The notes beneath the pieces are model-generated. The model searched no databases. It was not told the DNA's origin and was given only the letters and a program-made list of their open reading frames with translations. 49,415 nucleotides of DNA from an uncultured Lachnospiraceae bacterium. Its GTDB lineage: Bacteria; Bacillota; Clostridia; Lachnospirales; Lachnospiraceae. Below, piece after piece: positions 7,193-38,733 of this stretch (position 1 is the stretch's first letter; every line of letters begins with the position of its first letter). The position numbers and the translations under genes were made by a program. Location: the NCBI GenBank assembly GCA_949447165.1, contig CASTAV010000003.1, positions 1 to 49,415 on the forward strand, read 5' to 3'.

Positions 7193-8566
7193 TTATTGAT
7201 CTCTCAAATCATCATATCCATTGCCTGATGATGAGCTGTTACTGTTGTTTTGGCTGTTCTCGTTTTCCTTTTTATTGGCAGAAGTTAATAAATTATACAA
7301 TGTCGTCAGATAATCCTGCTGCTGGGCCGCATTGTTATTATTCTGGTTATTGTTGTTCTGGTTATTATTGTTATTGTTTTGGTTATTGTTATTCTGATTA
7401 TTATTGTTATTGTTTTGGTTATTCTGATTATTATTGTTATTATTTTGGTTATTATTGTTGTTTTGATTATTCTGGCTTCCGCCGGTTTCATCTGAAGATG
7501 TGTTTTTTGAAGGCGACGTAAGCGCAATTTCAATTTCCGCCTCTTTCGAATTTACGACTAATTTCTTCGTTACCCTTTCATACCCTTCCGCCTCTAAAGC
7601 AATCGTATGCGTCCCGTACGCCAGCTCAAGAGGCGCAGAGTAATCGGCCTGTTTGCCGTCTATAAATAAAAGGGCGCCTTCCACACCGACCCGAAATGTA
7701 ATCTTACACAGTTTCGGCCCTTCTCCTTTTAGTTCGTCGAGGTTTAGGCTAAGCGTCTGATTTCTCTCAATAACGACTTCCTTGCTCCCGCCATACCCAT
7801 TATTTGCCACTGTCACAAGATGGGCGCCTTCCGGAACTTCAATCTTCATGTTCTTTTCAACTTCCTGAAATATTTTCTCGCCAATGCAGATAAAGCTGCC
7901 TTCAAACAGCTTTGTATTGGAAAGCGCCAGATACCCATGCCCCTTTGTCACTGCAAGGGAAAGGATTTTTTTATCTTGTCCGACAGCCCGTAACACATCT
8001 TCTGCCCCTAAACTTCTAAATTCAACGGAAGAATCTCCGGAAAATATTTTCATATCCGGTTCATAGGAAAAAATCTTCTGCCCAATCGTCACTGCATGGA
8101 TTTCCTCATCCACAGAATAATTCACAATATTCTCCTGAACCCAGACTTGATCCGACAACTGTACGGCAGTAAGACGCTGATCTCGTTCCTCTATCTGAAG
8201 CTCTACGGCGTCGCCGGACAAAAAGGATTCCGCAGATTTCGTATTTCCATATTTATCCAAAAACTGCGTTCCGGTATCGTAAGCGTACTGCGCCGCCCTG
8301 CCGTTTGAGGCTTTTTTTACATCTACTGTTTTTTGCGCGGCATCCACGCCCGTCAAGATATAAAGCTCCGCTGTTTCTTCTGCATTAGAATCGGCTGTTT
8401 CCGTTTCCAGAACGGCTTGTGTGTCCGCTCCGGTTCCTCTCCGCCTTGTAACTATGCCGCTGTCTGAAGAACTGCCACAGGCGCAGACGGTCACGGAAAA
8501 ACAGATTGCCGCCAATATCATAAAACTATTCTTTCGTATCCTCATCGATTCTCTCCATTTATCCAT
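7193..8566 (-). CDS. PEGA-domain lipoprotein with N/Q-rich low-complexity C-terminal tail
   Basis: Lipoprotein signal peptide (MRIRKNSFMILAAICFSVTVCACGSS) and PEGA motifs (IEVPEGAHLVTVANNGYG). The C-terminal ~70 aa consist of N/Q repeats (NNQNNNNNQNNNNNNQ...). Confidence 0.6.
   Translation of the reverse strand: MDKWRESMRIRKNSFMILAAICFSVTVCACGSSSDSGIVTRRRGTGADTQAVLETETADSNAEETAELYILTGVDAAQKTVDVKKASNGRAAQYAYDTGTQFLDKYGNTKSAESFLSGDAVELQIEERDQRLTAVQLSDQVWVQENIVNYSVDEEIHAVTIGQKIFSYEPDMKIFSGDSSVEFRSLGAEDVLRAVGQDKKILSLAVTKGHGYLALSNTKLFEGSFICIGEKIFQEVEKNMKIEVPEGAHLVTVANNGYGGSKEVVIERNQTLSLNLDELKGEGPKLCKITFRVGVEGALLFIDGKQADYSAPLELAYGTHTIALEAEGYERVTKKLVVNSKEAEIEIALTSPSKNTSSDETGGSQNNQNNNNNQNNNNNNQNNQNNNNNNQNNNNQNNNNNNQNNNNQNNNNAAQQQDYLTTLYNLLTSANKKENENSQNNSNSSSSGNGYDDLRDQ
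7300..7480. repeat. AAT/AAC/CAG codon microsatellite-like repeats encoding the N/Q tract
   Basis: Degenerate tandem ttattgttattgttttgg units inside the lipoprotein CDS. Confidence 0.6.
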
Positions 8567-14030: not shown

Positions 14031-16541
14031 TTATTCCGCTTTGATTTCGCCTGTTCGAATGATAAATTTCACGCTTCCCGCCGTATCTTTTGCTTTTCCG
14101 CCAAACGATTCATAGGAGCCGCCTAAATCCAAAACATTCTGAATCCGTTCCGTAAATTCTTTAACGTCGCCCTGATAAGCGTTTACCAGCTTTTCAATTC
14201 CTTCTTCGTCAAACTTCACTATTCCGTCTTTTAGTTCAACCGATCCATCTTTTAATTGACGGGTTCCGTCTGAGAACTGGCTTACGCCGTCTTTTAATTT
14301 TGAAACGCCATTATTTAATTCCGTATTTTTGGAAGCAAGCGTCTGGCTTCCATTGTATAGCTGGTCAATTCCCGACGTCAGTTTCGGCAATTTATCCGAC
14401 ATTCCGTTCACCGCTTCATCTAATGCCGACATTCCGGAAACCAGACTATATCCTGACTCTTTATCCTTTTTTTCAATGTTTCCGGCAATCTGCTTTTTCG
14501 CAGACTGCGCGCCTTCGACTGCCGCCATTGCCGCCGCCTGCCCTGCCGCCGTTTTTGCGCCTTGCTTTACGCTGTCCGCTACAGATGTCCCAACCGTTTC
14601 TTTTGCCTGTTCCGCTACGCTTACTACCACTTTAGGCGCGGTCTGTTCCGCTACGCTTCCCGCCGTCTGTTCCGCCACACTGCCTGCCACTTGCGCCGCC
14701 ACACTGCCTGCCACTTGTTCCGCTACGCTGCCTGCCGCCTGTTCCGCCACGCTTCCCGCCACGTTTGACGCTACGCTTCTGGCTGTCTGATCCGCCACTG
14801 CGCCTGCCGCTGTCTGAACTGTCCCGATAAATGCCGAAAGCTGTGTTTCCGCCGCCTGTGCAACAGCCGCCGCAATCGACGCGTCCGCCATTGCCTGTTC
14901 TACGGTAATCCCGTTCGCCTGCGCCGCCTGAACAAAGCCTGCCGCCTGAAACGCCGCCTTCAACTGCGCTTTCGTTTCCTCCGAAACCGCGCCTGCAACT
15001 GCGGCTGCTGCCTGATCCTTCGCCTGCGCCGCAATCTCGTCGAGCTTTCCATTTATCCCTGCCATTGCCTGATCCTTCGCCTGCGCCGCAATAACCGGCT
15101 TTTGTGTCTGTATTCCCGCCACTGCCTGATCCTTTGCCTGTTCCGCAATGACCGGCTTTTGCGACTGTATCCCCGCCACTGCCTGATCTTTCGCCTGCGC
15201 CGCCGCCGTCTGTTTTACAGAGTCGCTTGCAACGGATGCATAAAATGCCTGCGATGCCTGCGATTTGATATTATTGTAACTTTGCGGGTTCGCGTCATCT
15301 GCAAACTGCGTTTCCACTGCCTGCGCCGCCGCTGTTTTTGCCTGCGCCATGGCCGCCTCTTTTTCGCTGTTTCCCATTGGGGCGTTTAGGGCATTATCAA
15401 GCGTTTTCATGCCATTGTTTAACGTATGGATGCTCGCCGTCAAATCAGCTACGCCGCTGACTAACAGGCCTGTTTCTCCTTTCAATGCGCTGATTCCGTT
15501 CGCTAACTGTCCGGCGCCGTCCGTATATGCCGCAACCCCGTTTTTCAAGGAATCAACCCCTCCCGCAAATTCACCCATTTTCTCATCTAATTCGCCAATC
15601 CCGTCAGAAAGTTTCTCTGAACCGTCTCTTAACTGTCCCGTGGCAGACGTTAAATCTTCCATTTTTTCGTCCATTTCCGTCAAATCAAACGTATAATCTC
15701 CGGCAAATTCCGAAGGCTGCGCCACAACCGTCATTGTCATATCTAAAGAAAAATCCTTTACGTCAGCATTTACTTCCACATAATCCGGAATGGATATGTC
15801 TTTTTCTAAATCGCCATTCTTTAAGTTCAAGCTTTCCTTTAAGCCCGGCGCCGCCATGCCAACCACAATCATTGTATCCCCGTTTGATATGACTTTTCCA
15901 TTTTTTACTTCCACATTTGTAAAATTATCTTTTAAAAGCATACCCGACACAGCCGCAAACGGAACATAGTAATCTCCGTCTTTCTCATGGTTTGTATAGT
16001 CAAAACGTATTTTTACGTTTCCGCTTTTTCCCGCCAAATCTTTCGGGGAAATTTTTTTCCCGTCCAAATAATAGGATACATTGACGGTAACCGGAGCTTC
16101 TTTTGTCGTCACGCCCTGATAGTAAATATCGTTTCCATCTGCCTGCCATTCAAGGACGTTGCCTTTTTTCTCAAATGTCTCCCTGCCTTTTACGTTTTCT
16201 ATGTCTTTTAATTCCGAAACGTCCGAAAGCGCATCTAATTTTTCCGGATTTTTCAGCCATTCGCTGACAATCGCCGATTCTGCGTTTCCATTTGCATCAG
16301 CAAGGATATAGACGGTTTCTTCTTTCCCAATAGGCGTTTTTTCACTTTCCTCCTTTCGGGAAAGGAAATCTCCCAGTTCCATTTCCTTTGAAACGCTCTC
16401 TGTCTTAGCTTCCCCGCTTTTTGCGGCATAAACGCCGCATATGCCAGTGCCGCCTGTCAAAAGCGCCACCGTCAATACGCCTGCCGTCATGCGGATTACA
16501 TATTTGTGTTTGAACCGTTCTTTTAATTTTTTAAACTTCAT
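14031..16541 (-). CDS. YhgE/Pip-domain membrane-anchored protein with coiled-coil and tandem peptide repeats
   Basis: 836 aa with an N-terminal TM anchor and many L..G...L..G coiled segments (LKDGVSQFSDGTRQLKDGSVELKDG). Internal repeats include AQAKDQAVAGIQ.QKPVIA x3 and GSVAEQ.AGSVAEQ x6. It sits immediately downstream of an MMPL transporter, a common pairing. Confidence 0.5.
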   Translation of the reverse strand: MKFKKLKERFKHKYVIRMTAGVLTVALLTGGTGICGVYAAKSGEAKTESVSKEMELGDFLSRKEESEKTPIGKEETVYILADANGNAESAIVSEWLKNPEKLDALSDVSELKDIENVKGRETFEKKGNVLEWQADGNDIYYQGVTTKEAPVTVNVSYYLDGKKISPKDLAGKSGNVKIRFDYTNHEKDGDYYVPFAAVSGMLLKDNFTNVEVKNGKVISNGDTMIVVGMAAPGLKESLNLKNGDLEKDISIPDYVEVNADVKDFSLDMTMTVVAQPSEFAGDYTFDLTEMDEKMEDLTSATGQLRDGSEKLSDGIGELDEKMGEFAGGVDSLKNGVAAYTDGAGQLANGISALKGETGLLVSGVADLTASIHTLNNGMKTLDNALNAPMGNSEKEAAMAQAKTAAAQAVETQFADDANPQSYNNIKSQASQAFYASVASDSVKQTAAAQAKDQAVAGIQSQKPVIAEQAKDQAVAGIQTQKPVIAAQAKDQAMAGINGKLDEIAAQAKDQAAAAVAGAVSEETKAQLKAAFQAAGFVQAAQANGITVEQAMADASIAAAVAQAAETQLSAFIGTVQTAAGAVADQTARSVASNVAGSVAEQAAGSVAEQVAGSVAAQVAGSVAEQTAGSVAEQTAPKVVVSVAEQAKETVGTSVADSVKQGAKTAAGQAAAMAAVEGAQSAKKQIAGNIEKKDKESGYSLVSGMSALDEAVNGMSDKLPKLTSGIDQLYNGSQTLASKNTELNNGVSKLKDGVSQFSDGTRQLKDGSVELKDGIVKFDEEGIEKLVNAYQGDVKEFTERIQNVLDLGGSYESFGGKAKDTAGSVKFIIRTGEIKAE
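14570..15200. repeat. intragenic tandem DNA repeats (~21-bp and ~60-bp units) inside the YhgE/Pip-like CDS
   Basis: ctgttccgctacgcttcccgcc-type units at 14580-14790 and two ~60-bp units at 15060-15200. Confidence 0.5.
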
Positions 16542-29653: not shown

Positions 29654-32326
29654 CTAACTGCCCCTATATTGATAACAGATAAAACTCCCCCAATGTTTCG
29701 GCGAACGGTAAAGTAAAAAGTCGTCCCAAAGCCCTTCCATGTAAGAAAAAACATCTTCTTGTATGTTCTCAAAAAACTTTTGATCGGATGTAAGCCTCTC
29801 TTTTACCTGTCCCACTGTTGTGTCCCTCAGTTTTTTTCTCGCAGACTGAAGCGCTGCCGGAATCAAATCCCCCTGATTTAATCTTTCATAAAAATAAAAC
29901 ATAAAAAGCGCCGCCGCTAAATCATCTACTTCCCACAAAGCAGAGACGACATAATGAACTCCCGCAGCGCCAAACGCCACATGAAGCCCTGTCTGCCATT
30001 CAAATTTCGTAAACAGGCTGCTGCCGGAATGACAGGCAGACAAAACCGCTAACTTTGTCCCCGTCAACTGCATTCTGCTTATTTCTTCCGCTGTTAATAT
30101 CCCGTCCCCATATTCAAAAGATTCTTTTCCTGTTTGTAAATAATCTAGCATTCCGGAAAATGCGAGCGAACTTTCATACCATGGATTCTCCTTCTCCTGC
30201 ATATGTATCCCATGGGTGGCAATATGTAAAAAACGGTATCCGGGTTTTAACCGGCGTTTGGAAACTGCCCTCCCGACATAGCATTCACCACCGAAAAAAT
30301 CCGCTATTTTTTCTGCCTCATAACCACTGAACGGAAGCGGCGAAATTTCCTGAATATAGCGGAGCGATGCATTCTGCCCTGTCAGATTTCTATTTTCTGA
30401 CAGGCAAAACGCAGGATTTCCTATGATACAAGATTTCTTCATTGAAGGATTCCCTTCTTGCCAAACTTCAAAAATATCCCGGAAAGATTGAAAATAAACG
30501 ACTGGAATCCCAAAATATCCGCTATCCGCAGCTTCAAACAAAACTTCAAACGGAAGATTGCAAAGACATTGATCCGGAGACGCCCAGATTTGCCCGGCAT
30601 CTTTTAATTCCGTCTCTAATTCTCCGAATATATGGCAAAATAGTTCCCTTGCAAATTTTTTGCAGTTCCCTTTCGCATCCCTGACGCATTGAAGAAACCT
30701 CTGTATGCCTTCTTCCAAGTCAAAGATTTTTTCGATTCTCCGGCAGACAGGCGCTTTTCCTTTTCTTTTTACAAATATTTCCAGACATACATCTTTTTTC
30801 GTAGCCGAAACGGCATTCCCAGACCAAACCGCCTCCCGATCCATATATAAAAACTCTACTAAAACGGCATGTTCTGGCATTTGTTCTTCTAACTTTTGGT
30901 ATGAATAATACGGAATCTCCCCTTTTCGTTTCACCCTGCGGGCTGCGCCAGAGCATCGATTTCTGGCGCGCAGTACAGAACAAAGGATATTTTTATAATT
31001 TATACTATATTCCAGCCTTTTTTCAGAAGACGTGACGTCCATCACAGCCGCATACGCCAAATGAAACGCCGCCTTGCAAATGGTTAAATACTGTTCCATC
31101 TGCGCGTTGTCCTCGTAATACTCCGCCATGGAATAAAACTCAGCCATCTTTTCCAATAAACTGCCCGCGCACCAAAGCAGTTTTTTTTCGTCCGCATTCT
31201 TCTTATACTCGCATATAGCCCTTCCCATAATAGAAAAATATGCTTGCCTGTCCACCTCAAAAATCTCCGCTTTCATAAGCGTAAGAATGCTTTTATCCAG
31301 ATAATGCATCGGATACCGGCCTCCAAGCGCCTTTTCAAAATAATAGCAAAACTGATAAAAACTGCTGCGCGCCCATGGCGCGTAGCTCAAAAACTCCCTG
31401 TCCTGATTTATTTGCTTTTTTACTTTTTCAATTTCCCTAATCTGCTTTTTAGGAATCTTTTGGTTCTTTTGATCCATTTGCAATAAATAACTGCCATACA
31501 CATATAACATATAATCCTCTTTGCAAACGCGCCGGACAAACCCCGATTCCACGCATTTCCGGATAAACGCATATGCTTCGTCAGAGCGAAGCATCGTTTC
31601 CAACAAAACGGCATAATCCGCCACAAGCCTTTGTATATCCAGCATAAATGGACGTATTGCTTCTTTTGCGGCAAGCTTATCCAACAGAAAACGGCAAACT
31701 GTCTCTGCCTGAACAGCTTTACGGGAAAACACATACTGATGCGCCAGATGGACAAGCGCGCAAAACGCATATTGTGACAGAGGTTCTTGCCTATCCAAAT
31801 GCAGAAATACTTTTTCAAGGCTAGCTTCCGCAAGTGACGTTTTTCCCGTTTTTGCATAAAAAACGCCAAGCGCCCCATATACAAAAGCATACAGATCTTC
31901 CCCGTCTAACTCATCCCGCCGTTCCCGTTCCACAAACTCCGCCAATTCGTTCGCCAGACCTTCATAACCGGAAAACGATTCCTGCCTCCCATACTGTTTT
32001 TGGAGTATATGTGCCAAACCTCTGATATACATCTCTTTTATAAGAGAAAATGGCAGTTCCACAGATTCTTTTGCCTGCGCCAAATGCCGGCTTAACGCAT
32101 TGCAGAGAAAATCCATATCCGCTTTTTTATCATATAGCAGATGTAAAATTAACGTATTATATTCCACAATCCAGTCTTTATACGCCTGTGAACCCAAAAA
32201 AGCCGTTTGTCTGGCTTTTTTTAAGCATCGGAACGCTTTTTTTATGTTTCCTTTCCGCTCTGCTTTTGCCGTGGCATCAAGCCAACGGAAGAATTCATTT
32301 CTGTCAGTTTCCATCTGCATCCTCAA
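29654..32326 (-). CDS. TPR-like helical repeat protein with C-terminal CHAT (caspase-like) protease domain
   Basis: 890 aa. The C-terminal ~250 aa carry the CHAT His/Cys dyad blocks FLHIATHG and LAVLSACHSG, and the segment FGAAGVHYVVSALWEVDDLAAALFMFYFYERL matches the CHAT consensus closely. The N-terminal ~600 aa are all-helical repeats. Confidence 0.8.
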   Translation of the reverse strand: MRMQMETDRNEFFRWLDATAKAERKGNIKKAFRCLKKARQTAFLGSQAYKDWIVEYNTLILHLLYDKKADMDFLCNALSRHLAQAKESVELPFSLIKEMYIRGLAHILQKQYGRQESFSGYEGLANELAEFVERERRDELDGEDLYAFVYGALGVFYAKTGKTSLAEASLEKVFLHLDRQEPLSQYAFCALVHLAHQYVFSRKAVQAETVCRFLLDKLAAKEAIRPFMLDIQRLVADYAVLLETMLRSDEAYAFIRKCVESGFVRRVCKEDYMLYVYGSYLLQMDQKNQKIPKKQIREIEKVKKQINQDREFLSYAPWARSSFYQFCYYFEKALGGRYPMHYLDKSILTLMKAEIFEVDRQAYFSIMGRAICEYKKNADEKKLLWCAGSLLEKMAEFYSMAEYYEDNAQMEQYLTICKAAFHLAYAAVMDVTSSEKRLEYSINYKNILCSVLRARNRCSGAARRVKRKGEIPYYSYQKLEEQMPEHAVLVEFLYMDREAVWSGNAVSATKKDVCLEIFVKRKGKAPVCRRIEKIFDLEEGIQRFLQCVRDAKGNCKKFARELFCHIFGELETELKDAGQIWASPDQCLCNLPFEVLFEAADSGYFGIPVVYFQSFRDIFEVWQEGNPSMKKSCIIGNPAFCLSENRNLTGQNASLRYIQEISPLPFSGYEAEKIADFFGGECYVGRAVSKRRLKPGYRFLHIATHGIHMQEKENPWYESSLAFSGMLDYLQTGKESFEYGDGILTAEEISRMQLTGTKLAVLSACHSGSSLFTKFEWQTGLHVAFGAAGVHYVVSALWEVDDLAAALFMFYFYERLNQGDLIPAALQSARKKLRDTTVGQVKERLTSDQKFFENIQEDVFSYMEGLWDDFLLYRSPKHWGSFICYQYRGS

Positions 32327-32885
32327 TAATTTCTATCACAGTTTCCCCATGAAATTCTTCCGTATTTAGGATAACCTGATAACAGTCTTTGTCCGCATGG
32401 TAAACAAAATCATACGTTTTTTCACCATGATCCGTCTGAACCCTGACAACGAAAGCGCCAGCGGAAAATTCCTCTGCATCAAACTGAATCACAACTTGTG
32501 TTTGACTGCATTCTATGAAAGAATACTCGCCCTTTCTGCTGATAAATGTTTCTGTCTGCATTTTTTTGCCGCCGCTTCTGGATGCGGCAGGCATTGGCAG
32601 GCGGACAAATTCCCAGTTTGAATGAAACGTTTCCTTTTTTTGCTGTATCATTTCATAGATTCCCGCCGCTGCTTTTAGGGCAAAAACAACTCTCTTTTCT
32701 GATTCCGGCGGCAGTAAACCATGCGCAGATAATTGTTTTTGCAACACATACTGCGCGCAGAATATCTCATAACAGCGGTCACAATCCGCCATATGTTTTT
32801 TTAACTCTAACTGCCTGTCATTTAAACGTTCCTCTTTTACATAAGCTTCTGAAAGATTCCTAAGATCCTCCTCTGATATGTGCAT
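32304..32885 (-). CDS. zinc-finger (zf-HC2) anti-sigma factor
   Basis: 193 aa with the N-terminal zf-HC2 signature H-x3-C-x2-C (LELKKHMADCDRCYEIF). It sits immediately downstream of a sigma-70-like gene, with a 1-nt spacing. Confidence 0.6.
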   Translation of the reverse strand: MHISEEDLRNLSEAYVKEERLNDRQLELKKHMADCDRCYEIFCAQYVLQKQLSAHGLLPPESEKRVVFALKAAAGIYEMIQQKKETFHSNWEFVRLPMPAASRSGGKKMQTETFISRKGEYSFIECSQTQVVIQFDAEEFSAGAFVVRVQTDHGEKTYDFVYHADKDCYQVILNTEEFHGETVIEIIEDADGN

Positions 32886-33899
32886 TTAACCCTCCCGCCT
32901 GCAAAAGATATCCTCTGCTATGCCAATGCTTTTTTTACGGAATATATTATCCGCTAAAGCAAGTTTTTCTGTTTCATTTTTCAGGTTTTTTGCTATCCGA
33001 AGCGGCCAATTTTTCATTGCGTTTTTGGAAAATGTATCTGTGATGACAAGCTGTTTGACCGGACTGCCCTTATATTCTTTTTCCATATTTTCCTCATAAG
33101 CCCTTCCCCACCGGAATTGACTTTCGCTAAGCGGCTCTAAATGGTAAATTTCCAAAAACTCCCGGTTTAACAGTTCCGACGTCTGCCGATACATTGCGGA
33201 TATGGCAAAGTTCATCAGTATCACGCTGTTTCTAGTGATTTCTCCTTCAAGCCTGCCTGTTTTTTCATTGTAACGCGAAGCATCCCCATCTGTTTTCCTT
33301 GCGCCAATTACGTTTAATTTTTTCAACAGTTCTTTGTTGTCAGTTCGTTTTATTAGCTGTGGAACCAAAATAGCATAACAGTAGGTAAGCGTCTGATAAG
33401 GCGGGGCTTTCGTCTCTTTCAGCGCTTTTACATAAAACTCAAATATGCGGCGTATCACGGATAACCGTTCCTGTTCGATATAAGCGCTTTCCATCTGTTC
33501 CGATTCACCGCCTGTTTCGAATATACCGTTTTCCGGCTCTTTCGGTATAAATTCCTTTTTTGCAAAATGCCTCTTTCTGTAATTTTGGCAGCATATTTCC
33601 GCCAACCCGATCAAATACCCATAAAACCCTTCTGACGTCACTTTTTCAGGAAACCCGCGAAACGCCAGCTTCATCACTTCCATCCGGATTTCCTGCATCA
33701 CATCATCTAACGCTTCCGGCTGGCATATGCCATATGCGCGAAGCCTTTTTGCCGCCATTTCATAGGTATTGTCGCTTAAAATCTGAAGCGCTTTTTCCAA
33801 TGCGGATTTATCATTCCGCATTATCGGATCATATAAACGGCTTATGGCGCGCCCGGCATCCTCTCCTTCATAAAGCGCCTGATTATTTTCCTTTTCCAT
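32886..33899 (-). CDS. sigma-70 family (ECF-like region-2 N-terminus) sigma factor-like protein with extended C-terminal region
   Basis: 337 aa. A region-2-like segment ALDDVMQEIRMEVMKLAFRG...FYGYLIGLAEICCQNYRKR is present. It is paired with the downstream zf-HC2 anti-sigma factor. The length is atypical for an ECF sigma. Confidence 0.4.
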   Translation of the reverse strand: MEKENNQALYEGEDAGRAISRLYDPIMRNDKSALEKALQILSDNTYEMAAKRLRAYGICQPEALDDVMQEIRMEVMKLAFRGFPEKVTSEGFYGYLIGLAEICCQNYRKRHFAKKEFIPKEPENGIFETGGESEQMESAYIEQERLSVIRRIFEFYVKALKETKAPPYQTLTYCYAILVPQLIKRTDNKELLKKLNVIGARKTDGDASRYNEKTGRLEGEITRNSVILMNFAISAMYRQTSELLNREFLEIYHLEPLSESQFRWGRAYEENMEKEYKGSPVKQLVITDTFSKNAMKNWPLRIAKNLKNETEKLALADNIFRKKSIGIAEDIFCRREG

Positions 33900-33900
33900 A

Positions 33901-34494
33901 TTATTCTCCCGAAATTAATGCTGAAAACTCAATGATATGGTCTGCAAACCCAAATACGACCGCTTCTTTTGCCCTAAAAAAATGATCATATCCGGTTGCC
34001 AGTTCAATTTCTTCTTCTGTCCTTCCCGTATGTTTCGATAGAATTTGTATCAGCCGTCTCTTTGTCTCTAAAATCATTTCCGAAACTGAGCAAATCGTGG
34101 AACTGCTTCCTTGCACCGGATTCCCTAAAAGCGGTTCGTGCGCCATCAATTCACTGTTTGCAAGCATATAGCGGTTTCCTTTTGGGGCGGCGGCAAAAAT
34201 AACTGCGCCCATACTGTACGCTTTTCCCAGACAATACATTTTTAGCGGAGTCTGGCAAGTGGCAACTGCATCGTAAATGAGCAGTCCACTGTTTATTTCC
34301 CCTCCCCGCGTGTTTATCATAATCCGGATTGGAAGATATTTGTCTTCCACAGTTAAAACCATTAATTTTTTGATAAACTCCATTGCCGCCGCATCGTCAA
34401 TTTCCCCTTCTAAAAAAATAGTCCGCTCTCCAAACAAACAAGTTTCTAAAGGAACCAGCGAAATGCCGTTACTGCTTTTCTTCTGCATATCCAT
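33901..34494 (-). CDS. ClpP-family serine protease (catalytic triad intact)
   Basis: 197 aa. ERTIFLEGEIDDAAA, INTRGGEINSGLLIYDAV, GKAYSMGAVIFAAAPKGNRYMLANSELMAHEPL and a downstream YDHFF segment are present. These align with E. coli ClpP blocks including S97 (GQAASMG), H122 (MIHQP) and D171. Confidence 0.7.
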   Translation of the reverse strand: MDMQKKSSNGISLVPLETCLFGERTIFLEGEIDDAAAMEFIKKLMVLTVEDKYLPIRIMINTRGGEINSGLLIYDAVATCQTPLKMYCLGKAYSMGAVIFAAAPKGNRYMLANSELMAHEPLLGNPVQGSSSTICSVSEMILETKRRLIQILSKHTGRTEEEIELATGYDHFFRAKEAVVFGFADHIIEFSALISGE

Positions 34495-35785
34495 ATCTAT
34501 AACCCCCTGCTTTTATATATTGGTTTATTTGCTTTTGCATTTTTGATTCCTGATCCATCTGTAAAAGTTTTTGATACTCTCTGTCCTTTAATGTTTCATA
34601 GCGCTGTGTCACAATCGGCTTTTGCCCGCGCCGAAAAATATACTCCTGCCCGATTGGCATGGAAAGCACGTCTTCTAGCGGCTGGTTTAACCGCTGGCTG
34701 ATGGATTTTGCCGTTTGTATGTCAACTCCGCCCATATAAATATAAGTGTCGGAATTGTTGATGATAGTCTTTGCATCTTTTTCCCCATATATGGAATCCA
34801 ACTGGCTTTCGCTTTGGAGAAGCAAGGTGACGGAGATCCCTTTTTCCCTGAATATTGAAATGTATTCAGCAAAATTCGCGATTTTTGATCCACAGGCAAA
34901 ATCGTCGCACAGCACATGCACTGGGCGGTTTAACTGGCCAGATTCATTTTTTTCTCCGATTTCAAATAATTCTTTAAACATCTGGCTGTAAAAAATATTT
35001 ACAAAACTGTTTAGCGATGGGTTCACCGGAGAAGTTGTGACAAATAAAAGGGTTTTTTCATCGGATATTTTTTTAAAATCCACCTTTTCCGCTTTTTGCA
35101 TCATTCCACAGAGTTGTGGGGTAAAAATCGTGTTTAAAGCTACGGAAAGCGTAGAATAAATACAACTGGAAGTGCGGACAGGCATCTGATGGAAAGAATC
35201 CCAACAGCAAATAGCAAAACAATGCGGATCAGCCTGCCGGATCACCTCAAAATCTTCATCAAGTGAAGTTTCTATCAGATCACTGCCTTTTATAATGCGT
35301 AAATCTTTAAACAGGGATATTACATCTGCCATAGTTCCGTGTTCTTTTGTCATCAGCACATGGGCGATCAGCGCTGACAACAGGCTTATGCTCGCATGAT
35401 CCCAATATGGGTCTGAACTTGAATTTTTTTTCCTGCTGTCTGCCATAACGATTGCTTCCGCAAGATAAGTAACGTCTGTCCAGCTCTTAAGATATTGAAG
35501 CGGATCATAGGAAATTTCCGATTTTTCTGGAGAAACAAAGTTCAGATCTAGGACTTTATAGCCCCTTGTCTGAAAAAGTTTTATGTATTTTGCAATCAGC
35601 CTGCGTTTGGACAAAGTCATAATCAGACTGGAATGATAAGTATGCAGCAGCCTTGGCTCTGAAATAGACATCGTCTTTCCTGAGCCACTGCTTCCACAAA
35701 CAAGGACATTGTTATTAATCTTCGTTTCCCTGCAGTCTGCGCTAAATACTGCATTTTTCCCTAAAACAACAGTATCTTTTCTCAT
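34469..35785 (-). CDS. soluble TraG/TraD/VirD4-family (type IV coupling protein-like) P-loop ATPase
   Basis: The start is the MRKDTVVLGKN methionine (ATG 35783-35785), with a GGGAGG RBS 7 nt upstream. It overlaps the upstream gene's stop as ATGA. Walker A VLVCGSSGSGKTMS is present. The C-terminal T4CP block VLCDDFACGSKIANFAEYISIFREKGISVTLLLQSESQLDSIYGEKDAKTIINNSDTYIYMGGVDIQTAKSIS matches the TraG-D_C pattern (LDEF..lgkip.....RsrGi...lilQs.sQL...YG......i..n.......G..d..Ta). There is no N-terminal TM segment. Confidence 0.55.
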   Translation of the reverse strand: MRKDTVVLGKNAVFSADCRETKINNNVLVCGSSGSGKTMSISEPRLLHTYHSSLIMTLSKRRLIAKYIKLFQTRGYKVLDLNFVSPEKSEISYDPLQYLKSWTDVTYLAEAIVMADSRKKNSSSDPYWDHASISLLSALIAHVLMTKEHGTMADVISLFKDLRIIKGSDLIETSLDEDFEVIRQADPHCFAICCWDSFHQMPVRTSSCIYSTLSVALNTIFTPQLCGMMQKAEKVDFKKISDEKTLLFVTTSPVNPSLNSFVNIFYSQMFKELFEIGEKNESGQLNRPVHVLCDDFACGSKIANFAEYISIFREKGISVTLLLQSESQLDSIYGEKDAKTIINNSDTYIYMGGVDIQTAKSISQRLNQPLEDVLSMPIGQEYIFRRGQKPIVTQRYETLKDREYQKLLQMDQESKMQKQINQYIKAGGYRYGYAEEKQ

Positions 35786-36297
35786 AACGGCGCCTCCCAG
35801 AACGGATTTAAACGAATTTGGCTCAGTTTTAGACTGGTTTTTGATCCGACCGCTCCTTGTTTTAGAATGTTCTGTACACATTCTGCATAATTCATGGTAA
35901 TATTTGTTGCAAAACGGAACACAGACTGCAAATTTTCTATAAAACCATTTACGCTTTCCCTTCCTTTCGGCTGGTACAGCATCATCTGGTATTCTGCCAC
36001 CAAATCATTCTCGTTTGTCATATAAATGCGCATGTACAGCCATTCATTCTGCAAATCGTTTATCAATTTATAAATTTCCCTATGACGGTTCTCTGGAATC
36101 CCTTCTGCAAGACATGTGACAATCCGGATAATTTTACTTTTCTCACTTACGGATACATTCATCTTTAGGGAATGGCAGGGGTTGCCATAAGATAAACTAT
36201 ATTTGATAAATCCTTCTTTGTCGCGCTCCTCTGTGTTCGATACTTTCCCAAATTGGTTTAATACTTGTTTTACAATTTCCTGATAAGCGGCTGCCAT
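35782..36297 (-). CDS. first gene of the operon; possible YbjN-family (T3SS-chaperone-like fold) protein
   Basis: 171-aa acidic protein with an AGGAGG RBS 7 nt upstream. The family assignment is weak, from the pattern only. Confidence 0.3.
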   Translation of the reverse strand: MAAAYQEIVKQVLNQFGKVSNTEERDKEGFIKYSLSYGNPCHSLKMNVSVSEKSKIIRIVTCLAEGIPENRHREIYKLINDLQNEWLYMRIYMTNENDLVAEYQMMLYQPKGRESVNGFIENLQSVFRFATNITMNYAECVQNILKQGAVGSKTSLKLSQIRLNPFWEAPL

Positions 36298-36378
36298 AAG
36301 CTTTCCTCCTTTTTACATTCTCATAGACTATATGGCGGCTTACCAAACATTTACTCAAATTTTATTAAATTTTCCCTT

Positions 36379-36522
36379 CCGTCTTTTTGCTTTTCTTTCG
36401 CTGTCTTTTTTATTTTTCTTTCTCTATCTTTTTTGTTTTTCTTTCGCTGTCCTTTTGCTTTTCTTTCGCTGTCTTTTTACTTTTCTTTCGCTGTCTTTTT
36501 ACTCTTTTCGCTTTTTATGACT
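36379..36522. repeat. six imperfect tandem copies of a ~22-bp unit (gtctttttgcttttctttcgct) in the intergenic region upstream of the vault-like operon
   Basis: Direct reading: gtctttttgcttttctttcgct / gtcttttttatttttctttctcta / tcttttttgtttttctttcgct / gtccttttgcttttctttcgct / gtctttttacttttctttcgct / gtctttttactcttttcgct. Confidence 0.7.
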
Positions 36523-36540
36523 TATTTTTATGCGATTCCA

Positions 36541-37401
36541 TTAAAATTTCTTTTTTATTGTTTTCTTTTTATATCCCGATTTTTTAATCTGCGCTTTGAC
36601 CGTAATGCCTTTTAGCTTCTTTCTAAACTTAATTTTTGCATTTCCTTTTTTGTCTGCTTTTACAGTTTTAGAAGATTTCCCAAGGAACGATTTCTTTGCC
36701 CTGACTTTAACTCTTGCGTTTGGAACTGTTGTTATTTTTAACGTTTTTCCCTTTTTTGAAATTTTTGCCATTACCACCTGCACTTGATAGGTCGCTTTTA
36801 GTTTCCCAATTACAGCTTTAATTGTCACAGAGCCTTCCTTTAATCCTTTTATCTGCCCGGAAGGGGATACGGACGCCACTTTAGGGTTAGAACTGCTGTA
36901 AATTGGCTTTAAGCTTGTAATTTTTCCAAGGGAACCCATAACGGAAGCTTTCTGCGTCAAGGTATGCCCGGCTACCAGCGTTTTTTTCTTTTTTGAAAAT
37001 GTAATTGATTTTGGCTGGTTGGATACAACGGTCACTTTATAAGAAGCGGATAATTTTCCAGTTTTTGCAGTAATTACCGCCACTCCCGGCGCAATTCCTA
37101 ACACTGCGCCCGATGCGGATACAGACGCTGCTTTGGGATTGGAACTGCTGTATGACGGTTTTATATCATTGCGTACCCCCGCATCGTCTTTGACTACCGC
37201 TTTTTGCGTCATAGATTCCCCTGCCATAATTGTAACGCTTGATTTTAAAAATGAAATCTCTTTTGGCTTATGTGACACTGCGATATTAACTGTAGCTCGC
37301 CTGCCGCTTGTCGTCTTCGCAATAATGGTAACACTTCCCACTCCTTTTGCCGTTACCTCCCCAATGCTGTTCACCTCCGCAATGCCAGTATTGGAACTTT
37401 C
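36541..37401 (-). pseudogene. in-frame continuation of the LRR protein past the TAG: two to three Big_2 domains + Lys-rich C-terminal tail (no start codon of its own; the ORF track begins at a GTG)
   Basis: It is in the same frame as the upstream ORF. Reading through the stop gives ...ANTTDAVI*ESSNTGIAEVNSIGEVTAKGVGSVTIIAKTTSGRRATVNIAV, which completes a Big_2 domain. Further Big_2 units follow (SSSNPKAASVSASGAVLGIAPGVAVITAK; SSSNPKVASVSPSGQIKGLKEGSVTIKAV), then a KKGKTLKI...KKKTIKKKF tail. Confidence 0.5.
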
Positions 37402-38733
37402 CTATATAACTGCGTCGGTTGTATTCGCCGGCGTAATGGCATAAGTCAGCAGCCGCGTATCATCTACATTCATATAAATCGTTCCCGCAGAAAATTTAAT
37501 GCTGGAACTTGGAACTGCTTTTAATAAAACAATGGGATTCCCTTTCGCTGACGCATATTTTTCGGCTTCTGATCCGGCATAACATTTTATCGTCACTTCA
37601 TTACTGCATATTTGATAATAATGATCCTGCATATTTATTACGCTGTTCGGAATCAAAATGCTGCTTAGGGCATTGCAACTATTGAACGCCGCATATTCAA
37701 TTTGTGTAACCGTATTTGGAACTGCAACGCTTATAAGAGAACTGCATCCAGAAAAAGCGGTTCTTCCAATCTTTAACAAACGATTTGATAAACCTATCTG
37801 CTTTAAAGACGTACATCCTGCAAATGAAGACTCTTCCAAATACCTTACGCTTGATGGAAGTGTAACTTTTACCAAACTAGAACAGCCGCTAAATGCTTCC
37901 GTGCCAATTGAAATTCCGGTATTGCCATTTGCAATCGAAACATTTTTTAATGAAGAACACTGCTCAAATGCGTTATAACCAATATTGGCATTTGCCCCAA
38001 TGGAAACCGTCGTTAGATTCTTATTACCTGCAAAAGCATATCCGGATATAGACGTATGAACAGATGCACTTACTAAATTTTGACAATTATTAAAAGCACT
38101 TCTGTCCATTTCAACAGATGCCGCAACATTGACGCTTGTTAATCCTGTATTTTCAAAGCTACCTATGCCTAAATATGTAAGCGTTGACGGAAAAACACAG
38201 CCGTTTAACTTTACACAATTTTGAAAAGCATAATATCCTATTGACGTAAGCGCAGTTCCAAGAGAAACGCTTCGCAAATTTCCACAATTAGAAAAAGCGT
38301 ACCTACTTATAGACACTACATTTTTCATTCCATAAATAGCTGTCAGATTTCCGCAGCTCTGAAAACTACCGTAACCGATACTTGTAACCGTATCCGGTAT
38401 ATTAACAGATATCACCCAATCATTATATTCAAAAGCCCAATTACCAATCGCCGTTACTTTTTTTCCGGCTATCATGCTTGGAATCACTACATTTTCTTCT
38501 ACTCCTGTATATTTTGTTATAACAATATTGGAATAATCTCCTTCTTTATATTGCCAAAAACCAAATACGCCGTTTCCTTTCGCCATTTCCACAGTTTCTT
38601 CCCTGACAGTCTCCTCTGCATTCACCATCTCTGTCCCAGAAAAAAACATAAGAACCGCAAGCAACGCAACAAATAATATCCTTTTTTTCATAATCACTTT
38701 CCCCTTTCTACCGATAACCCATTTCTTCCTCAT
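37402..38733 (-). CDS. BspA-type leucine-rich-repeat (LRR_5) cell-surface protein, N-terminal part (ends at an in-frame TAG)
   Basis: The signal peptide KKRILFVALLAVLMFFSGTEMVNA is followed by many ~22-aa repeats of the type I(P/G)..VTSIG..AF..C..L. The ORF stops with TAG at 37402-37404 in the middle of a Big_2 domain. Confidence 0.7.
   Translation of the reverse strand: MRKKWVIGRKGKVIMKKRILFVALLAVLMFFSGTEMVNAEETVREETVEMAKGNGVFGFWQYKEGDYSNIVITKYTGVEENVVIPSMIAGKKVTAIGNWAFEYNDWVISVNIPDTVTSIGYGSFQSCGNLTAIYGMKNVVSISRYAFSNCGNLRSVSLGTALTSIGYYAFQNCVKLNGCVFPSTLTYLGIGSFENTGLTSVNVAASVEMDRSAFNNCQNLVSASVHTSISGYAFAGNKNLTTVSIGANANIGYNAFEQCSSLKNVSIANGNTGISIGTEAFSGCSSLVKVTLPSSVRYLEESSFAGCTSLKQIGLSNRLLKIGRTAFSGCSSLISVAVPNTVTQIEYAAFNSCNALSSILIPNSVINMQDHYYQICSNEVTIKCYAGSEAEKYASAKGNPIVLLKAVPSSSIKFSAGTIYMNVDDTRLLTYAITPANTTDAVI

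Follow-up and report, generated by a model that had tools for sequence, protein, structure and literature searches.

The locus and its genes

The tandem array described here occupies an intergenic gap in a 49,415-nucleotide stretch of DNA, which was analysed over its full length and is referred to below as the window. The gap measures exactly 243 bp, as given in the preliminary description, and lies between two ORFs on the minus strand (Table 1). Downstream of it begins an operon whose first gene encodes a TY-Chap1/YbjN-like chaperone, followed by genes for a VirD4/TraG-like ATPase (T4CP), ClpP, a candidate ECF-like sigma factor, a candidate anti-sigma factor, a CHAT protease and an MVP-like protein. 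A gene for a 1390-aa surface protein on the same strand closes the listed operon genes. The unit ends near position 23062, and a second gap of 305 bp, containing a terminator-like hairpin and the sigma-A-type promoter of the next gene, comes next. Contrary to the preliminary description, the 243-bp gap is thus not the only sizeable one flanking the operon. All the ORFs of at least 120 aa with family support in the window are on the minus strand. Genes for SpoIIE, YabQ, TilS and ProRS were found elsewhere in the window, which indicates that it derives from the chromosome of a spore-forming Firmicute.

Table 1. Features of the array locus and copies of the promoter-like motif. Positions are those of the window unless another locus is named.
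Feature	Position	Strand	Sequence or remarks
Big_2/Ig-like ORF, upstream of the gap	36541..37374	-	Pfam; 3′ fragment of an LRR_5/Big_2 surface-protein gene
Gap containing the array	36298-36540		243 bp
Stretch between upstream ORF stop codon and array	36513..36540	-	28 bp
Tandem array	36381-36512	-	132 bp
Unit u1	36512-36493	-	AGCGAAAAGAGTAAAAAGAC; 20 bp, degenerate/decayed
Unit u2	36492-36471	-	AGCGAAAGAAAAGTAAAAAGAC; 22 bp
Unit u3	36470-36449	-	AGCGAAAGAAAAGCAAAAGGAC; 22 bp
Unit u4	36448-36426	-	AGCGAAAGAAAAACAAAAAAGAT; 23 bp
Unit u5	36425-36403	-	AGAGAAAGAAAAATAAAAAAGAC; 23 bp
Unit u6	36402-36381	-	AGCGAAAGAAAAGCAAAAAGAC; 22 bp
A/T-rich spacer	36358..36380	-	GGAAGGGAAAATTTAATAAAATT; 23 bp, separates array from conserved motif
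Conserved promoter-like motif	36330..36357	-	TGAGTAAAT gtttggtaag CCGCCATATAGTC; downstream of array
Putative short 5′ UTR	36298..36329	-	Shine-Dalgarno AGGAGG at 36310-36305
TY-Chap1/YbjN-like chaperone, first operon gene	35782..36297	-	171 aa; Pfam PF22551, E=3e-7
VirD4/TraG-like ATPase (T4CP)	34469-35785	-	Pfam E=1.5e-36; NCBIfam CD1115-type, below cut-off
ClpP	33901-34494	-
Candidate ECF-like sigma factor, divergent	32886..33899	-	337 aa
Candidate anti-sigma factor	32304..32885	-	193 aa
CHAT protease	29654-32326	-
MVP-like protein	27249-29642	-	MVP shoulder domain, E=4.9e-21; directly after CHAT protease
Gap at the 3′ end of the operon	22757-23061		305 bp
Motif in L009	3338		TGAGTAAAT tttctcagag CCTCCATATGTAA
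Motif in L013	3937		TGAGTAAAT tctccaaata CCGCTATATACAG
Motif in L017	2387		TGAGTAAAT tcccaaggtg CGGTTATATATAG
Motif in L018	2405		TGAGTAAAA atttacatat AGCCTATATAACA
Motif in L054	2393		TGAGTAAAT tctccaattc CCGCCATATATAG

The chaperone, ATPase and ClpP genes form a triad (33901-36297, minus strand) that recurred in most of the examined loci without other conjugation genes. The triad suggests a coupling-protein-like ATPase that would partner a protease instead of taking part in DNA transfer. The VirD4-like ATPase had 1228 relatives at E<=1e-20, and in some lineages, including L013, it was fused with the chaperone into a single protein of 636-652 aa. A word-based search for relatives of the 171-aa chaperone returned only its own cluster.

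The LRR_5/Big_2 gene upstream of the gap is split by a TGG to TAG change (37402-37404) in the window and in the same-species contig L001. It was intact in L003 (716 aa), and in L002 it was broken by a different 1-bp deletion, at about window position 36893. This surface-protein gene has been inactivated independently in near-clonal populations. A tiny ORF, ATGGAATCGCATAAAAATAAGTCATAA (MESHKNKS; 36517-36543, minus strand), lies just ahead of the array, where it overlaps the upstream stop codon (TAATG), and is probably fortuitous. The 28 bp between the upstream stop codon and the array lacked a terminator hairpin, and no terminator-like site was detected from the upstream ORF to the array. A consensus scan of the gap recovered neither a sigma-70 promoter nor an intrinsic terminator. 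Other tandem repeats in the window (7331-7471, 14641-14810, 15008-15203 and 47803-47858) repeat with periods divisible by 3 and are located in ORFs, encoding a PEGA-domain protein, an 836-aa protein without a family hit and a 258-aa protein. These are presumably coding repeats.

Structure and composition of the array

The array takes up 132 of the 243 bp in the gap. It consists of five full units (22, 22, 23, 23 and 22 bp, from u2 to u6) and one degenerate distal unit of 20 bp, and the six imperfect copies of about 22 bp that had been described before are a fair count. TRF delimited it at 36381-36500, with a period of 22, 5.4 copies, 86% matches and a score of 173, and additionally called a super-period of 68 bp with a score of 200. 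The repeat finder placed five copies in register, spaced by 23, 23, 22 and 22 bp. On the coding (minus) strand the unit reads AGCGAAAGAAAAGCAAAAAGAC, and the sense-strand consensus is AGcGAAAGAAAAgc(A)AAAAaGAc. Units differ by substitutions and a 1-bp indel. The segment GAAAGAAAA is constant across units 2-6 and the differences cluster at two central positions, giving an invariant core of GAAAGAAAA...AAAA.GA. The sense strand of the array is composed of 65% A, 22% G, 10% C and 3% T, and the plus strand is 87% pyrimidine, in agreement with its earlier description as pyrimidine-rich.

The array is real and non-random. When the gap was shuffled 300 times with its dinucleotides preserved, the top TRF score averaged 39 and was at most 103, compared with 173 in the real sequence. 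The consensus unit, allowed up to 3 mismatches, was absent from 100 shuffled versions of the window. The array is therefore not an artefact of composition, and chance is ruled out even at its skewed base content. No further copies of the unit were found elsewhere in the 49-kb window.

Two simple identities were rejected on structure. The units follow each other head-to-tail without spacers, so that the array is not a CRISPR array, as had been recognised at the outset. Neither is it a coding repeat or an extension of the upstream gene, since unit lengths of 22 and 23 bp are not multiples of 3 and there are stop codons in all three sense frames. No minus-strand ORF of at least 40 aa covers the array.

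A conserved promoter-like motif downstream of the array

Six lineages of the operon family have a single upstream block in common, TGAGTAAA(T/A)-N10-ssnyyATAT, which can also be written as TGAGTAAA(T/A)-N10-(C/A)(C/G)N(C/T)(C/T)ATAT and takes the form TGAGTAAAT-N10-CCGCCATAT in the window (36357-36330). Each locus has a single copy that directly precedes the TY-Chap gene, 59-155 nt from its ATG (Table 1), and the window contained no second copy. The gaps of the five orthologous lineages measured 88-183 bp and could not be aligned with the gap of the window except at this block. The bipartite structure of the block, its fixed internal spacing and its variable distance to the start codon together constitute a promoter signature. 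In L018 a strong hairpin with a U7 run behind it (-24.5 kcal/mol, z -6.6) was found about 35 nt upstream of the motif, and this terminator hairpin indicates that a new transcription unit starts at the motif.

The spacing is not that of a sigma-70 promoter. TTGAGT and TATAGT are 20 nt apart and the sigma-70 scan was empty at this position. We propose TGAGTA as the -35 and CATATAG as the -10 element, with a spacer of 17 nt, which is the geometry of alternative or ECF-type promoters. The motif thus looks like a promoter for an alternative sigma factor, a role that we infer from its sequence and placement, and it would put the start of transcription near 36320. Between the array and the motif are 23 bp, and the array would extend from about -61 to -192 relative to this putative start. 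As the motif is downstream of the array, the array would be upstream DNA and not part of a 5′ UTR, and its earlier placement in the leader of the operon does not hold.

The A/T-rich spacer between array and motif is about as long as one array unit and may be UP-element-like. The 17 bp adjoining the conserved motif, AAAATTTAATAAAATT, look UP-like. Orthologs also had A/T runs at the position of the spacer, of unalignable sequence.

A candidate sigma and anti-sigma factor pair

The 337-aa and 193-aa proteins had no significant match to a Pfam family, the best being zf-HC2 for the 193-aa protein (E=0.085). The 337-aa protein had a weak match to an RNA polymerase sigma factor in NCBIfam (E=1e-3), and a profile built from 13 of its homologs matched only ECF sigma factors in PDB (E between 0.015 and 0.028). 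Its AF2 model (pLDDT 79) resembled region 2 of ECF sigma factors at TM 0.65-0.79. The top Foldseek matches of this model were SigC (2o7g, TM 0.79) and sigmaE region 2 (TM 0.59-0.73), with probabilities of 0.99-1.0 and E-values of only 0.17-0.7. The 193-aa protein has the zinc anti-sigma motif H31-x3-C35-x2-C38. Together the two proteins look like a divergent ECF-like sigma factor with its zinc anti-sigma partner. Beyond this pair, neither response regulators nor DNA-binding factors of other types were detected by Pfam in the operon or next to it.

The anti-sigma candidate always adjoined the sigma-like gene, and the position of the pair relative to the chaperone-ATPase-ClpP core shifted between lineages. 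The pair follows ClpP in the window and L013, and in L017 and L054 its homologs directly precede the motif. Neither gene of the pair was detectable beside the motif in L009 and L018. In a test for autoregulation, the motif was not found upstream of the sigma-like gene in L056 and L058, two loci in which the pair is accompanied only by CHAT. Due to these two findings the link between the sigma-like protein and the motif is tentative, action of the protein at the motif being no more than plausible.

Comparison of same-species assemblies

DNA identical to the window was present in mouse-gut metagenomes. Six contigs from separate samples and studies (L001, L002, L003, L006, L007 and L008) were retrieved by way of the 171-aa protein and a 99% variant of it. 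The whole gap, including the array, was base-for-base identical in all five contigs that span it (L001, L002, L003, L006 and L007), in a comparison that has low power for point changes, the same-species contigs being near-clonal (they share 99.8-100% identity with the window across 6.5 kb), and in which consensus assemblies mask heterogeneity within samples. L008 begins inside the array and was identical over the 14 array bases that it retains and over the downstream part of the gap. Position 1 of this short-read contig (ERZ941102 k127_40058) thus marks a break within the array, which could be either an assembly break at a repeat or a hint of within-sample heterogeneity.

Phase-variable promoter repeats include the TAAA tract of nadA in Neisseria and the 7-bp repeats upstream of hmw1A and hmw2A in Haemophilus. 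The array resembles these in being a tandem repeat near a promoter of surface-associated genes, and the preliminary description had raised a phase-variable promoter spacer and proposed a check for copy-number variation in related strains. A contingency repeat of this kind would change its unit number by slippage, and with it the geometry of the promoter and the expression of the operon. A location beside the promoter of genes that form a surface- or conflict-type cluster would suit such a function, as would the end of L008 within the array and the independent inactivation of the neighbouring surface-protein gene in different samples. However, a slippage-prone repeat is expected to vary in unit number, and the same number and sequence of units in all five full-length assemblies, near-clonal as they are, gave no sign of phase variation. 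Unlike the short, perfect and copy-number polymorphic units of nadA and hmw, the units here are long (22/23 bp), imperfect (86% matches, with substitutions and a 1-bp indel) and monomorphic in the five assemblies, and they are located outside both the -35/-10 spacer and any ORF. The array was therefore rejected as a contingency repeat, and we regard phase variation at this locus as highly improbable.

Orthologous operons and wider searches

Homologs of the ATPase, 66-76% identical to the T4CP of the window, identified five orthologous lineages with the chaperone-ATPase-ClpP core (L009, L013, L017, L018 and L054). TRF and inspection of the sequences found no tandem array upstream of the chaperone gene in any of the five. 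The gap of the closest ortholog was only 88 bp long. The preliminary description had also raised a recombination hot-spot, and gene order at the array junction did differ between lineages. Since the array is absent from the orthologs, the operon family does not need it, and the array is apparently recent.

No second locus with this array was found in the public scans. A scan of GTDB genomes with the T4CP recovered only two distant loci of conjugation type (L004 and L005), without an array at the corresponding position. The sole TRF hit in these was in L004 (3640-3691, period 23-24, 2.2 copies), about 2.3 kb upstream of the T4CP gene. Scanning metagenomes with a two-unit pattern did not retrieve this species and returned 27 unrelated stretches, mostly with in-frame periods of 21 or 24 bp. 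The same scan detected two unrelated A-rich arrays with units of 22-23 bp, in L022 (about 1250-1420) and L026 (about 620-1000). In both arrays the unit combines a shared AAAGAAAA(A) core with a G+C-rich segment behind it, which reads GGCGCGCC in L022 and GCCCAGT in L026. A hairpin follows the array in L022. A viral scan had four matches, all of in-frame periods, and blastn against plasmids and phages had none, in a search where the low-complexity filter may mask an array query.

Possible replication, curvature and RNA-level roles

Plasmid replication iterons were considered as an identity for the array, and the gamma origin of R6K has seven 22-bp repeats. The array is similar in its number of direct repeats of about 22 bp and in its position beside an A/T-rich stretch. 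Unlike the R6K iterons it is chromosomal, with no rep gene nearby and no plasmid match in the blastn search, subject to its low-complexity filter. No Rep protein was found by Pfam among the neighbouring genes, and the DnaA box TTWTNCACA had four matches in the window, fewer than expected by chance, none of them less than 7 kb from the array. The array was therefore not accepted as a set of iterons.

A-tracts of 3-6 bp are found in every unit, and the array is upstream of a promoter-like element, which would fit a stimulation of the promoter by intrinsically curved A-tract DNA. UP elements and upstream A-tract DNA are likewise A-rich and located ahead of the -35. Unlike UP elements, however, the array extends far beyond -60, and its A-tracts, about 6.5 bp apart within a unit, are not helically phased. 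In a dinucleotide wedge model, in which the controls behaved as expected, the ratio of end-to-end distance to contour length was 0.91 for the array. This is at the 11th percentile of the 132-bp windows of the analysed DNA and equal to the value for shuffles of the array (0.92+/-0.05), whereas controls with phased A6 tracts ranged between 0.25 and 0.68. No curvature is thus predicted. The autocorrelation at lag 11 was only 0.56, against a background of about 0.46 and a value of 0.57 at lag 6, and an 11-bp sub-periodicity, as in half-sites of the OmpR/PhoB type, was rejected as well. Intrinsic curvature was rejected on these grounds, and it is very unlikely to account for the array.

The array could also act in RNA. 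Transcripts reading through from the surface-protein genes would carry it as a long, unstructured A/G-rich intercistronic segment, serving as an entry site for an RNase or as a platform for a protein, and in this way uncouple the two sets of genes. The genes of the window all share one strand and no terminator-like site separates the upstream ORF from the array, so that read-through RNA may include it. Folding predicts no structure for the sense RNA of the gap, which would be single-stranded (MFE z +0.65). No known RNA family or structured leader was recovered from Rfam, either at the gathering score or at E<=1. The array is also not conserved at orthologous loci, down to the 88-bp gap of the closest ortholog, and the promoter-like motif downstream of it would make it dispensable for expression of the operon. 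We therefore consider a function at the RNA level to be quite improbable.

Possible regulator binding and the probable origin of the array

The preliminary description had also proposed that the array binds a regulator. If so, the six direct sites, spaced by two helical turns, would recruit to one face of the DNA an activator or repressor that multimerises, and the bound protein would reach the -35 region and tune the promoter in this species only. The period of 22-23 bp, close to two turns, and the position upstream of the promoter-like motif, at about -61 to -192, fit this proposal. The distance between the array and the -35-like element is about one unit length (23 bp), a geometry seen in cooperative activator arrays. 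An invariant GAAAGAAAA with a variable centre is also the pattern that a bipartite protein site would give.

[quoted passage not shown] The array resembles this system in its roughly six sites and its two-turn spacing of 22 bp, the sites at Pptx lying roughly at -35 to -170 upstream of the promoter (PMC7250471). Pptx differs in having inverted heptads, a known response regulator and a proximal site that abuts the -35. The array is made of direct A-rich repeats, with a gap of 23 bp to the -35-like element, and there are no such sites at the orthologous promoters.

The last point speaks against the proposal. A functional regulator array would be expected to have sites at orthologous promoters, and all five lineages are without the repeat. 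No nearby DNA-binding factor other than the sigma/anti-sigma pair was found by Pfam. The unit is a low-information sequence of 87% purine, its proximal copy does not abut the -35, and the 49-kb window contains no other copy. A cooperative binding platform is for these reasons unlikely, although it is the least unlikely of the alternatives to the reading given below. A narrower form of it is somewhat less likely again. In this form the array would be a species-specific, helically phased loading platform for a multimerising protein, either a silencer of nucleoid type or an activator, which would put a further layer of control on the alternative-sigma promoter of a conflict-type operon. If that were true, the array would be a recently evolved enhancer or silencer made by minisatellite expansion.

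We lean, by a modest preponderance, towards the array being a fixed, lineage-specific, non-coding minisatellite, which is at most a passive A-rich upstream spacer or a modest modulator. Such a minisatellite would probably have started from an A-rich 22-bp segment that was copied by slippage or unequal duplication, and the super-period of 68 bp is a hint that a second round followed. The array would then have decayed to about 86% identity between units and become fixed, with a decaying surface-protein gene on one side and a conserved promoter-like element on the other. The latter, as a conserved promoter of alternative-sigma type, would drive the operon of TY-Chap, VirD4-like ATPase, ClpP, sigma/anti-sigma, CHAT and MVP-like genes. 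If the array has any effect, this is most likely passive and may be that of an A-rich unstructured spacer between the promoter and the upstream gene, perhaps prolonging the A/T-rich UP-like zone.

On its own the array matters little, being one more intergenic minisatellite beside a promoter, which is a known kind of element. It was useful as a landmark, as it led to the 28-bp promoter-like motif and to the operon's own candidates for an ECF-like sigma factor and a zinc anti-sigma factor, and these by-products are more informative than the array itself. If the array does bind a regulator, it would represent a control region upstream of a promoter that was made de novo by repeat expansion in a single Lachnospiraceae-like lineage of the gut.
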